A DNA stretch of 64,000 nucleotides from Candidatus Lloydbacteria bacterium RIFCSPHIGHO2_02_FULL_50_18 (GTDB lineage: Bacteria > Patescibacteriota > Minisyncoccia > Phycocordibacterales > UBA6899), in NCBI GenBank assembly GCA_001821395.1, contig MHLM01000001.1:1-64000 (forward strand). The letters run 5' to 3'. Of the stretch, positions 35,266 to 40,189 are shown piece by piece. The notes under the pieces were generated by a model. The model ran no database searches and had not been told where the DNA came from. It was given only the letters and a program-made list of their open reading frames with translations. The first letter of the stretch is position 1; every line of letters begins with the position of its first letter. A program made the position numbers and the translations under genes.

Positions 35266-35449
35266 AAAGATTCGATACAGAACACCGAAAGTAAGCCAAT
35301 GGGCTTGAGTGATTAGGATGGGCACACGGTGCGCAGCTACCCCTTGACAAGAATCTTTGGGGTGCTAAAACTATAAACAACCGAGTATTGGAACGAAACT
35401 GTCAATACCGAAGAAGTCATTATTTTTTGTTTCATTTATTTTTTATTTT

Positions 35450-36484
35450 ATGGGCAACGTCAGCATATCGTTCAAACCAAAAGTGGTCACAAAGCATTTC
35501 CTCGGAGTGTTGCCTCGCCGTGCCCAGGACGTTATCACCAAACGCTACGGTCTTGGTGCTGAAACAAAGAAAATGACACTCGAATCTATCGGTGAGAATT
35601 ACGGCATCACTCGTGAGCGTGTTCGTCAGATCGAAAATTTTGCATTGACGACGATCCGTAAATCCGACGCATTTAAGGAGGAGATGCCAACCTTCGATGA
35701 ATTGCGCAAAACCATGCTTTCAATGGGCTCCATCGTTCCCGAATCTGATTTTTTGGCGAGCGTGTCGAGTGATAAGTCAAATCAAAATCATATTCATTTC
35801 CTCCTGGTCTTGGGTGAACTTTTCACGAAACACAAGGAAGATGATGATTTCTCTCATCGCTGGAGCACAGACCCTGAGACTGCGGTCAAGGTTCATGATT
35901 CGTTGCGCAAGCTTTATGCTTCTCTTTCTGACGATGATCTTATCGAAGAATCAAAGATGATTGAGCGTTTCTTGAGCCATCTTAAGGAGGTTTCAGAAGA
36001 GTACAAGAACGAAGAGATATTGCGCCGTTGGCTCTCGCTGTCAAAGAAGATGGGCAAGAACCCGCTTGGTGAATGGGGTATGGCTTCATCGCCGAATGTT
36101 TCGGCGCGCGGAGTTCGCGATTACGCATTTCTGGTGTTACGAAAAAATGGTTCACCGATGCATTTCACTGAAGTGGCAAAAGCGATCGGTGCGCACTTTG
36201 ATAAGCAGGCACACATCGCAACGACACACAACGAACTAATCAAAGATAAGCGTTTCGTGCTTGTCGGGCGTGGACTCTATGCACTCTCTGAGTGGGGATA
36301 CTCGACCGGTGTTGTCCGTGATGTGATCGGTGAGATCATCAAGAAGAGCGGTCCGCTCACTCGCGAAGAGGTTGTCGACAAAGTGATGCGCGAACGTTAT
36401 GTGAAGCCCAACACCATTCTCGTGAATCTGCAGAATCCGAAATATTTCAAAAAGAATAAAGAAGGGAAGTACTCGCTTGTGTAG
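35450..36484 (+). CDS. Sigma-70 region-4-like HTH protein fused to a C-terminal HARE-HTH (RNAP delta-like) domain
   Basis: N-terminal LPRRAQDVITKRYGLGAETKKMTLESIGENYGITRERVRQIENFAL is a region-4-like HTH. C-terminal MHFTEVAKAIGA...HNELIKDKRFVLVGRGLYALSEWGY is HARE-HTH-like. Confidence 0.75.
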   Translation: MGNVSISFKPKVVTKHFLGVLPRRAQDVITKRYGLGAETKKMTLESIGENYGITRERVRQIENFALTTIRKSDAFKEEMPTFDELRKTMLSMGSIVPESDFLASVSSDKSNQNHIHFLLVLGELFTKHKEDDDFSHRWSTDPETAVKVHDSLRKLYASLSDDDLIEESKMIERFLSHLKEVSEEYKNEEILRRWLSLSKKMGKNPLGEWGMASSPNVSARGVRDYAFLVLRKNGSPMHFTEVAKAIGAHFDKQAHIATTHNELIKDKRFVLVGRGLYALSEWGYSTGVVRDVIGEIIKKSGPLTREEVVDKVMRERYVKPNTILVNLQNPKYFKKNKEGKYSLV

Positions 36485-36487
36485 TCT

Positions 36488-36515
36488 AAATGCCGTCCGA
36501 ATGGACGGCATTTTC
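36488..36515 (+). terminator. Rho-independent terminator
   Basis: TGCCGTCC-gaat-GGACGGCATTTT perfect hairpin followed by a T-run. Confidence 0.75.
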
Positions 36516-36552
36516 GTTCCACAAATAGCAGATTTACGATATACTCAGTCTT

Positions 36553-37779
36553 ATGTTTGATGTGATGAGCGCGTTTTTCGATAAGCCTTTTTTCCATCTC
36601 TTGGGGCAGATGTATGACATTGCTGCAGTTTTGGCATTCATATGGGGGCCGCTCGTTGCTGTTTGGCTCGCGCAAAAACTTTGGCTTGATTATGTTCGAC
36701 TGGATTTCATTCGAAAGAATTACGAATTCATTCTTCTTGAGATCAAGCTGCCGCGTACGATCGACAAAACCCCAATGGCGATGGAACTCGTACTACAGGC
36801 GCTCCATCAGGGTGGTACGTACAATTGGTACGACAAATGGTGGCTCGGAAAAGTAAGACCATGGTTTTCTCTCGAGATCGTTTCGATCGAGGGGGAAGTA
36901 AGGCTCTTGGTGCGCACACCCTCAAAATTCAAAAAATTGATCGAGAGTCATATCTATGCGCAATATCCGGATATTGAGGTCGTTGAGGTGCAGGACTACA
37001 TTTCGCTTGCACCGTATCTTCATGAAAAGAACGAGTGGAGTATGTGGGGCTGTGAGTTTGCGTTGACGAAACCCGACCCTTATCCGATAAAGACCTATGT
37101 TGATTACGGGCTCGATAAGGCCGGAACAAAAGAAGAATTTAAGAGTGATCCGATTACCTCAATGATCGAATTTCTCGGTAGCATTGGACGAGGTCAGCAG
37201 ATCTGGATGCAGATACTCGTACAGGCAAACGGTGATCGATATGCAACGCCGGGAAAATGGTTCAAGAAGCACAATTGGAAAGAGGAGGGGGGGAGACTCA
37301 TCAAGGAGTTGCAGGCAAAATATTCCGGCATCGATGGTGCGAAACCCTCAAAGTCGGAACAGGAAGCGATAGCGGCCATTGAGCGCTCACTGTCAAAGAT
37401 AGGATTCGATTGCGGAATTCGCACTATCTATATTGCGCAGAAGGAACATTTTGACCCATCAAACATTGCGGGGATTACCGGTGCATTTCGACAATATAGT
37501 TCTCCGACCTTGAATGGCTTCAGGCCGAGTAACACTCCCGGATTTAGCTATCCGTGGCAAGATATCAATGAATGGCGGGAATCGAAGCAGAAAAGAAAAT
37601 TATTCGACGCATACGTTCGTCGCTCGTACTTTTACGCTCCATACAAGAAGACGCCGTTCGTGCTCAATGCTGAGGAGCTCGCAACGATCTATCACTTCCC
37701 CGGTGGTGTCGCGGAGACACCGACATTCTCGCGCGTCGAATCAAGAAAGGGTGAACCCCCGTCTAATCTCCCTATATAA
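36553..37779 (+). CDS. Conserved hypothetical membrane-anchored protein (N-terminal TM, ~360-aa soluble domain ending ..EELATIYHFPGG)
   Basis: Clean 408-aa ORF 4 nt upstream of mltG. No Walker motifs and no family recognised. Confidence 0.7.
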   Translation: MFDVMSAFFDKPFFHLLGQMYDIAAVLAFIWGPLVAVWLAQKLWLDYVRLDFIRKNYEFILLEIKLPRTIDKTPMAMELVLQALHQGGTYNWYDKWWLGKVRPWFSLEIVSIEGEVRLLVRTPSKFKKLIESHIYAQYPDIEVVEVQDYISLAPYLHEKNEWSMWGCEFALTKPDPYPIKTYVDYGLDKAGTKEEFKSDPITSMIEFLGSIGRGQQIWMQILVQANGDRYATPGKWFKKHNWKEEGGRLIKELQAKYSGIDGAKPSKSEQEAIAAIERSLSKIGFDCGIRTIYIAQKEHFDPSNIAGITGAFRQYSSPTLNGFRPSNTPGFSYPWQDINEWRESKQKRKLFDAYVRRSYFYAPYKKTPFVLNAEELATIYHFPGGVAETPTFSRVESRKGEPPSNLPI

Positions 37780-37782
37780 TCC

Positions 37783-38814
37783 ATGATCGTAACACTCGAA
37801 AAGAAAGAGGAATTTGAGAATGGCGGAACGGCCATTCTTCCTCATTTGCCGGAAAAACGCACGCATCGGTTGTGGAAGATGGTCGGAGTTTTCATCGTAC
37901 TCCTCTGCGTAATCACCGTTGCTGCTGCTTGGTTCCTTGCTCTTTCACCGAGCGCTGAACGTAAAACGGTCACCGTGGAAATAGCGAGTGGAAGCGGCGT
38001 GAGGGGTATCGCATCCTTGCTTCACGATGAGGGTATCATCCGGTCTCCTCTTTTGTTTACGTTCCTTGCTCGCTATACGAAGGCAGATACGATGCTTGGC
38101 TCGGGAGTCTTTCAGTTTCAAATGCCTATGGATGTGTTTTCAGTGCTGACACAGGTGCGCTTGCATCGCTATGGAATAACGCGCTCGAAAATAACGATCC
38201 CTGAAGGGACACCGCTTTCGATTATGGCCGGGCTGTTTTCAGCATCCTTGCCTAATTTTGATAAGAGTAAGTTCCTTGACGAGACCGAGGGTATGGAGGG
38301 TTATCTATTCCCCGATACCTATTTTTTCTTTGTAAATGCCACCAGTGGACCCGTCATCGCAGTATTGTCGGACAATTTTATAAAAAAAACGGCGGTATTG
38401 AAGAGCGAGGCGGAGATCACTCATGGGAATTGGAATGAGGTGATAGTCATGGCGTCGCTTATCGAAGAGGAGGCGGTTACCGACATGGACCGAAAGATCA
38501 TTTCGGGTATCCTCTGGGCCCGGATCGCTCGAGGAATGAGGCTGCAAGTTGATGCGCCGTTCGTTTATTTTCTTGGAAAAGCTTCTTCCGAGATCACCAT
38601 CGATGATCTTTCTTATGATTCACCTTGGAACACCTATCGTTACAAGGGTCTTCCTCCCACACCCATCAGCAATCCCGGTCTTCTTGCTATCGACGCTGCA
38701 CTCCATCCGACTAAGACAAATTACCTGTTCTATCTGTCCGACAAAGAGGGCGTGATGCATTATGCAAAGACTTTTGAAGAGCACAAGTTGAATAAAGCGA
38801 AGTATCTATATTAA
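37783..38814 (+). CDS. mltG: Endolytic murein transglycosylase MltG (YceG family)
   Basis: N-terminal TM helix and the GLPPTPISNPG signature. Confidence 0.85.
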   Translation: MIVTLEKKEEFENGGTAILPHLPEKRTHRLWKMVGVFIVLLCVITVAAAWFLALSPSAERKTVTVEIASGSGVRGIASLLHDEGIIRSPLLFTFLARYTKADTMLGSGVFQFQMPMDVFSVLTQVRLHRYGITRSKITIPEGTPLSIMAGLFSASLPNFDKSKFLDETEGMEGYLFPDTYFFFVNATSGPVIAVLSDNFIKKTAVLKSEAEITHGNWNEVIVMASLIEEEAVTDMDRKIISGILWARIARGMRLQVDAPFVYFLGKASSEITIDDLSYDSPWNTYRYKGLPPTPISNPGLLAIDAALHPTKTNYLFYLSDKEGVMHYAKTFEEHKLNKAKYLY

Positions 38815-38824
38815 GATAGGCCAA

Positions 38825-40189
38825 ATGAATATCAACGCAATCACAAAGGCATATTTTATCGGAGTGGGAGGGATTGGTGTTTCCGCGATCGTGAGGCTTT
38901 TTGCGGGCAGGGGAATCATCGTTGCTGGATCGGACGGAACGTTTCCCGGTGCCGGCGCTCTTCCTTCAGGGCAGTATTTCGAGGGAGCAGACAGCAGTCA
39001 TGTTCCGTTTGACGCATCGGTTGTCATCTATTCGCCGGCGGTTCCTCCGACCAATGTTGAACGCATGCGCGCGGAAGAACTGGGGATTCCCACATTGTCA
39101 TATCCTGAGGCATTGGCGCTTGTGACGTCAGGCAGCGATACGATCGCGGTATCGGGAACGCACGGCAAGTCAACCACGACCGCACTGCTTGGAAAACTTT
39201 TTGAAGAAGGCGGCATGGATGCGTCAGTGATCGTTGGTGCGGAGGTTCCCGGCTGGGATCGCAATTATCACAAAGGTCGAGGAGATATGTTCATTGTGGA
39301 GGCATGCGAATACCGAAGGAATATGATGCACCTTTCGCCTCAGGCTATTCTGCTTACGAATCTTGAGCTCGACCACCCTGATTACTATCTTGATCTTGCC
39401 GATGTAAAGAGCGCATTCCGCGACTATATTAAAAAACTTTCCGGGGAAGATCTGCTTATTGTGAATAATGATGATGCAAATATTCGCGACGTGGTAAAAG
39501 GCTCAGATGCGATCATGGTGAGTTTCGGTGTGGGTGGCGGTGCAGATCTTATAGCGAGGAACATAAGAGAAGACGCGGCTGAACAATCATTCGAACTTAT
39601 ATGGAAAGGTACTTCAATAGGTGAGTTCTCAACGCCGCTCCCCGGTCTCTACAACGTCTACAACATTCTTGCAGCGACCGCAGTGTACCTTGCCTATGGA
39701 GGAAGTCGGGATCATATTCAGCCCGTGTTGACGACGTTCGTGGGCGTCGGAAGAAGATTTGAAGTCGTTGGCGAACTTGGTGCTGCTATCATCGTGTCTG
39801 ATTATGCGCACCATCCTACTGCGCTTACGGCGGTCGTTGATGCTGCGCTTTCACGCTACAGAGGAAAGAGTATCCTTACTGTTTTCCGTCCTCACCATCG
39901 CGAGCGTACGATCAAGCTGATGGACGAGTTTGTCGAAACCATGCTCGGTATTCCGCACTGTGTGCTTATCGAGATCTATGATGTCCCCGGGCGTGAAGAA
40001 AATACTCAGGTGAGTTCTCATGACATCATTGACCGCGTCTTCGCGCACGACCCGCAAAAAGATATTGTGTATGCAAAAGACCTTTCCGAAGCGGAAGGGG
40101 TCGTGAGGGGCAAAGCATCCCTGTTTGACGTCATTCTTATCGTCGGTGCGGGAGATGCAGATCAGCTTGCGAAGCGTCTTGTGTCGTAA
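38825..40189 (+). CDS. murC: UDP-N-acetylmuramate--L-alanine ligase
   Basis: FIGVGGIGVSAI N-terminus, Mur-ligase P-loop GTHGKSTTT and a C-terminal Mur ligase domain. Confidence 0.9.
   Translation: MNINAITKAYFIGVGGIGVSAIVRLFAGRGIIVAGSDGTFPGAGALPSGQYFEGADSSHVPFDASVVIYSPAVPPTNVERMRAEELGIPTLSYPEALALVTSGSDTIAVSGTHGKSTTTALLGKLFEEGGMDASVIVGAEVPGWDRNYHKGRGDMFIVEACEYRRNMMHLSPQAILLTNLELDHPDYYLDLADVKSAFRDYIKKLSGEDLLIVNNDDANIRDVVKGSDAIMVSFGVGGGADLIARNIREDAAEQSFELIWKGTSIGEFSTPLPGLYNVYNILAATAVYLAYGGSRDHIQPVLTTFVGVGRRFEVVGELGAAIIVSDYAHHPTALTAVVDAALSRYRGKSILTVFRPHHRERTIKLMDEFVETMLGIPHCVLIEIYDVPGREENTQVSSHDIIDRVFAHDPQKDIVYAKDLSEAEGVVRGKASLFDVILIVGAGDADQLAKRLVS

Follow-up and report, generated by a model that had tools for sequence, protein, structure and literature searches.

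A sigma-70 region 4/HARE-HTH protein and a DUF8128 membrane protein of Patescibacteria: a possible conserved pair of a type-IV-secretion-derived ATPase module

Genes and signals at the locus

The window, that is, the whole stretch of 64,000 nucleotides analysed here, derives from a MAG of Candidatus Lloydbacteria, ultra-small bacteria of the CPR/Patescibacteria. The region of interest contains the following genes and putative signals:

35344..35371, +, promoter-like TTGACA, 16-nt spacer ending in TGc, TAAAAC (read from the sequence; weak)
35450..36484, +, sigma4/HARE-HTH gene, 344 aa (ORF list; 100% identical to database entry OGZ05115.1)
36488..36518, +, terminator-like hairpin (folding), 11-bp stem at 36488-36513 with a GAAU loop, then TTTTCGTT
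36518..36545, +, promoter-like TCCACA-16-TATACT (consensus scan 9/12; ends 7 nt before the DUF8128 start; weak)
36553..37779, +, DUF8128 (PF26449) gene, 408 aa, OGZ05116.1 (ORF list)
37783..38814, +, mltG, YceG-family endolytic transglycosylase, 343 aa, 3 nt past DUF8128
38825..40189, +, murC, UDP-N-acetylmuramate--L-alanine ligase, 454 aa (TIGR01082)

The four ORFs of the initial annotation are all present, and profile searches uphold the identities of MltG (Pfam YceG, E 1e-67; TIGR00247, 196.7 bits against a cutoff of 103.4) and MurC (TIGR01082, 341.5 bits, with the cutoff at 335.1). The last three genes are indeed tightly packed, with spacers of 3 and 10 nt; the gaps of 4 and 11 nt given before were coordinate differences. 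NCBI places the 344-aa product in the family 'sigma factor-like helix-turn-helix DNA-binding protein', and all homologues of the 408-aa product carry a precomputed PF26449 match and the UniRef name 'DUF8128 domain-containing protein', in a family of 2751 clusters at 50% identity.

The hairpin of the strong terminator proposed after the first gene is borne out by folding, with a dG of -24.3 kcal/mol, z = -4.9 and none of 200 shuffles as stable; a simple terminator scanner missed it because the T-run is interrupted. An equivalent hairpin is kept past the sigma4/HARE gene in the loci of the window's clade, hereafter type B (median dG -16.7; a hairpin plus T-run under a strict criterion in 31 of 70), and operonic type-A loci lack it (median dG -7). 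The spacer between the sigma4/HARE gene and DUF8128 is also longer in type B, with a median of 113 nt versus 38 nt in type A. Hairpin and spacer together indicate that the two genes are not co-transcribed in the window's clade, a point against their belonging to one module. The element at 35344..35371 was passed over by the scanner because its -10 hexamer ends in C. Sites like that at 36518..36545, which the consensus scan did call, are no more numerous here than shuffles would give.

Domains of the 344-aa and 408-aa proteins

The domains of both proteins map as follows:

35483..35665, +, sigma-70 region 4 (4.1 + 4.2), aa 12-72 of the 344-aa protein (Pfam, PDB, Foldseek, invariant columns)
35684..35869, +, alpha-beta-alpha-alpha-beta-beta unit, aa 79-140 (AlphaFold model, pLDDT ~90; DSSP order)
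36119..36295, +, HARE-HTH, RNAP-delta-like, aa 224-282 (Pfam, TIGR04567, PDB)
36616..36678, +, single N-terminal transmembrane (TM) helix, aa 22-42 of the 408-aa protein (Kyte-Doolittle maximum 1.97)
36721..37692, +, globular alpha/beta domain, aa 57-380, its fold like that of the N-terminal domain of VirB4 (TrwK) and of EccE
37657..37776, +, C-terminal tail (..NAEELATIYHFPGGVAETPTFSRVESRKGEPPSNLPI) (invariant columns; modelled as disordered after aa 380)

The helix-turn-helix at the N-terminus of the 344-aa protein, initially described as of the sigma-70 region 4 type, proved to be RpoD-like by Pfam (Sigma70_r4 at aa 18-71, E 5.7e-14, 51.8 bits, cutoff 24.1), by PDB sequence matches (all to RpoD/SigA region 4, ~1e-11, aligned to sigma70 residues 542-601) and by Foldseek, in which every match was a sigmaA region 4 (30-47% identity, ~1 A rmsd). 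A generic LuxR/FixJ fold, considered from the start as the competing assignment, is not what we found; Pfam searches of the 344-aa protein gave no GerE match at E<=1. Sigma70_r2 and r3 were equally absent in this search, in line with the initial annotation, and a protein that lacks regions 1.2, 2 and 3 cannot serve as an initiation factor. The recognition helix TRERVRQIE, invariant in the sigma4/HARE family (columns T54-E62), is identical to T583-E591 of sigma70 except for I587V. Family-wide invariance extends to R24, R32, T54, R55, E56, R57, R59 and Q60, which correspond, in the register of the PDB alignment, to sigma70 R554, R562, T583, R584, E585, R586, R588 and Q589, residues known to contact the -35 element. 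Unlike in sigma70, the basic activator-contact patch, K593/R596/K597 in that factor, reads N/T/T in the same alignment.

The unit at aa 79-140 may have a winged-helix-like topology, to judge from its model, and sequence-family searches with it gave no match. The HARE-HTH was recognized by Pfam (aa 224-282, E 2.2e-7, 31.6 bits, cutoff 25.9) and is delta-like, as the initial annotation had it: it shares the RF(V/L)xVGxxLWxLxxW signature with the delta subunit (RpoE) of Firmicutes, scores 28.8 bits with the delta model TIGR04567, under its cutoff of 42, and has as its sole PDB sequence match the Staphylococcus aureus RNAP delta subunit (8x6g_E, E 0.04). The AlphaFold model is poor in this part. 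Unlike in delta, the HARE-HTH is internal, not N-terminal, and is followed by a basic C-terminus (13 K+R versus 7 D+E) without an acidic tail. This gene is the best conserved of the block, with a median tblastn identity of 61% versus 52% for LeuRS.

The 408-aa protein is membrane-anchored, as had been proposed, through the segment at aa 22-42, its only Kyte-Doolittle window above 1.5. Among 117 DUF8128 family representatives, the mean K+R count rises from 0.55 ahead of the helix to 2.17 behind it, so that the positive-inside rule predicts an N-out/C-in topology. Foldseek retrieved TrwK chains as all of the top 10 matches, with probability 1.0. RecA-type ATPase structures (TrwB, FtsK, HerA, the VirB4 C-terminal domain) were absent from the matches, and the similarity must thus be to the N-terminal domain of VirB4. 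Pfam and NCBIfam showed no sequence homology between DUF8128 and VirB4-NTD/TrsD, and hhalign matched it to neither TrwK aa 1-421 nor pSK41 TrsD, so the link to VirB4 is structural only, which counts against the module discussed below. The likeness to EccE, from the different ESX type VII secretion system, is much weaker and also without sequence similarity. The protein does not end in ATIYHFPGG, as first reported; it continues for 24 residues (VAETPTFSRVESRKGEPPSNLPI) that rank with the best-conserved positions of the family, and the tail is also invariant in type-B genomes.

Gene order among relatives and the partner ATPase

Gene order was compared in the best 80 loci of each scan, so that the sampling is biased. 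The sigma4/HARE gene precedes DUF8128 in 66 of 69 type-B loci, and also in type-A loci; the three loci without it count against the two proteins forming part of one module. The pair remains constant while its flanks change, with SecF or LeuRS upstream and the ATPase described below or MltG downstream, and the 344-aa gene heads a conserved array, as initially annotated. The designation of the array as a cell-wall cluster was not supported, and the proposed synteny of the 408-aa gene with mltG and murC is not generally conserved. Of 69 species-level loci, only 6 have murC at up to 3 kb downstream, which places this gene outside the conserved module. mltG follows DUF8128 with a median gap of 5 nt across 77 loci and is translationally coupled to it in 61 of them, which could reflect a true functional tie and argues against a module without mltG. 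In the DUF8128 tree its adjacency is limited to type B, a single, pure clade (73 B, 0 A), and can thus be explained by a single rearrangement. SecF-flanked type-A loci form a pure clade of 41, and LeuRS-flanked type-A loci lie between these and type B.

The order in divergent Parcubacteria is SecD-SecF-(Sigma70_r4+HARE-HTH)-(DUF8128)-(DUF87/TrwB_AAD_bind/T4SS-DNA_transf/TraG-D_C ATPase). In the sister clade DUF8128 is followed, after a median gap of 12.5 nt, by a TM-less ATPase of the VirD4/type IV coupling protein (T4CP) type, which passes the Pfam cutoffs for TrwB_AAD_bind, T4SS-DNA_transf and TraG-D_C. In a search begun from the ATPase, 40 of 58 metagenome loci had DUF8128 as the gene just before it, and in 34 of 48 the sigma4/HARE gene preceded DUF8128 in turn. 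The ATPases have their Walker A near residue 35 and contain no TM segment (maximum hydropathy 1.1-1.4), so that DUF8128 would hold them at the membrane. One ORF (locus L169) joins both proteins: its residues 24-64 align to DUF8128 (aa 368-408 in the L087 orthologue, aa 370-407 in the window protein), and its residues 69/70-153 to aa 8-91 of the ATPase, the DUF8128 tail thus meeting the ATPase N-terminus 4-5 residues on. The fusion is known from this one example, whose ORF is cut short where the contig stops, and downstream the contig seems to be a chimera; both points weaken the case for the module.

The window itself contains no T4CP-like ATPase gene. However, for GW2011_GWA1_47_8, the type-B genome of locus L011, two T4CPs distant from virB4 are listed in Table S3 of PMC12102498, and two further ones for GW2011_GWA2_47_7, indicating that the ATPase persists in type-B genomes; the unchanged DUF8128 tail of type B points the same way. 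The sigma4/HARE protein of GW2011_GWA2_47_7 shares a 90% cluster with that of the window. The same survey counted 5,713 T4CP homologues across 2,918 Patescibacteria genomes, with just 148 of these homologues near virB4, found relaxases to be rare (109 homologues from 103 genomes of Patescibacteria, with 39 homologues close to a t4cp), and held it possible that T4CPs were 'exapted for other functions' (PMC12102498).

A possible split coupling-protein module and its alternatives

We give about an even chance to the two proteins being a conserved pair of a type-IV-secretion-derived ATPase module, and not of a cell-wall operon. DUF8128 would provide a VirD4/T4CP-type P-loop ATPase with its membrane anchor, as a detached subunit built from one TM helix, a cytoplasmic domain of VirB4-NTD fold and an invariant tail that is the linker into the ATPase when fused and presumably docks on its N-terminus when split. 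The 344-aa protein would be a multi-winged-helix DNA binder, its first domain derived from RpoD with every -35-contacting residue kept, and may act as the DNA-binding partner of the motor, either as adaptor or specificity subunit, in a role like those of TrwA/TraM or of the FtsK gamma domain. The three proteins would then probably form a physical complex, a membrane-anchored DNA-handling ATPase. In the clade containing Lloydbacteria, the ATPase gene may have moved elsewhere in the chromosome, with mltG (here followed by murC) taking its place; we infer this direction of the rearrangement.

Known systems offer partial parallels. T4CPs such as VirD4, TrwB and TraD match the family of the partner ATPase, which, as in TrwA-TrwB, has the gene of a DNA-binding protein beside its own; TrwA and TraM are DNA-binding accessory proteins of T4CPs. 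Canonical T4CPs have their own N-terminal TM domain, which here resides on the separate DUF8128, and their accessory proteins are ribbon-helix-helix proteins, unlike the sigma4/HARE-HTH binder. Like TrsD/TraD of Gram-positive type IV secretion systems, DUF8128 stands alone as a polypeptide, and its gene immediately precedes that of a secretion ATPase of the FtsK/HerA superfamily; in pSK41, TrsD precedes a VirB4-like gene. Unlike VirB4-NTD/TrsD, DUF8128 has its own TM helix and conserved tail with no detectable sequence similarity, is partnered by a VirD4/T4CP-like and not a VirB4 ATPase, away from virB4, and is chromosomal, essentially single-copy and in a housekeeping context. Indeed, a type-B genome has a separate TrsD between virB4 and virB3 (PMC12102498 Table S3). 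In VirB4 itself, the N-terminal domains are embedded in the inner membrane, where VirB3 and VirB8 are their contacts (PMC12857230). A VirB4-NTD-like protein whose partner ATPase scores as VirD4-type is an odd combination, and counts against the module. The succession of membrane anchor, FtsK/HerA-superfamily motor and winged-helix DNA-recognition module recalls FtsK/SpoIIIE, by analogy only: the three functions lie here on three polypeptides of different ancestry, and none of the sigma4/HARE, DUF8128 or ATPase proteins matched the FtsK family.

The initial annotation saw in the 344-aa protein a possible RNAP accessory factor, and in the 408-aa protein a possible lineage-specific peptidoglycan or divisome component. 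On this view region 4 would dock on the beta-flap and the HARE-HTH in the manner of delta, and the 408-aa protein would act with MltG and MurC. Both domains are genuine, the gene is the best conserved of the block, as expected of a partner of core machinery, and mltG is coupled to DUF8128; nevertheless, we find this rather unlikely, given the limited linkage of murC and mltG, the VirB4-NTD fold, T4CP-type partner and single fusion of DUF8128, the basic C-terminus where delta has its defining acidic tail, the TIGR04567 score under cutoff and the absence of RNAP genes nearby. For the 344-aa protein, the link to an ATPase module is better supported than that to RNAP. Somewhat less doubtful is that it regulates the operon behind it, or itself, and is not a structural partner of the module, because it has HTH domains, is the first gene in every arrangement and has a perfect TTGACA upstream of its own gene, and because small HTH regulators such as KorA head type IV secretion operons (R388 korA lies just upstream of the trw genes). 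A protein of 344 aa with three or four HTH/winged-helix modules and the top conservation of the block would be an atypical local repressor, though, and its linkage to DUF8128 is kept even where the downstream genes became mltG; in 18 of 45 type-A loci it lies within 20 nt of DUF8128, which suggests stoichiometric co-expression.

That the genes have no functional link, and are merely collinear by inheritance in a slowly rearranging small genome, seems improbable to us. The order LeuRS-sigma4/HARE-DUF8128-MltG-(Exo)-MnmA-p283 is collinear across 80 type-B loci, plainly unrelated genes included, and each arrangement is clade-specific, but the sigma4/HARE-DUF8128 pair outlasts at least two upstream and at least two downstream contexts, and the adjacency of DUF8128 and ATPase is backed by the fusion and by a TM anchor complementary to a TM-less motor. 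It is harder still to believe that the 344-aa protein supplies region 4 in trans, as a separate -35 reader for a housekeeping sigma lacking it: the invariant -35-contacting residues and very high conservation would fit, but Paceibacteria RpoD is not known to lack region 4, CPR annotations have full-length sigma factors, and what the gene stays linked with is a secretion-type ATPase module rather than transcription genes.

Against the split ATPase module, to which we return, stands also the one genetically tractable Patescibacterium, whose T4CP homologue was reported to be non-essential (PMC12102498). What such a motor would act on is a matter of speculation, DNA translocation, uptake or segregation being candidates. 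On our best reading, the partner ATPases are what has been described before from Patescibacteria as 'orphan T4CPs', and a sigma4-derived DNA binder with a split, membrane-anchored T4CP-like ATPase would constitute a Paceibacteria-wide module.

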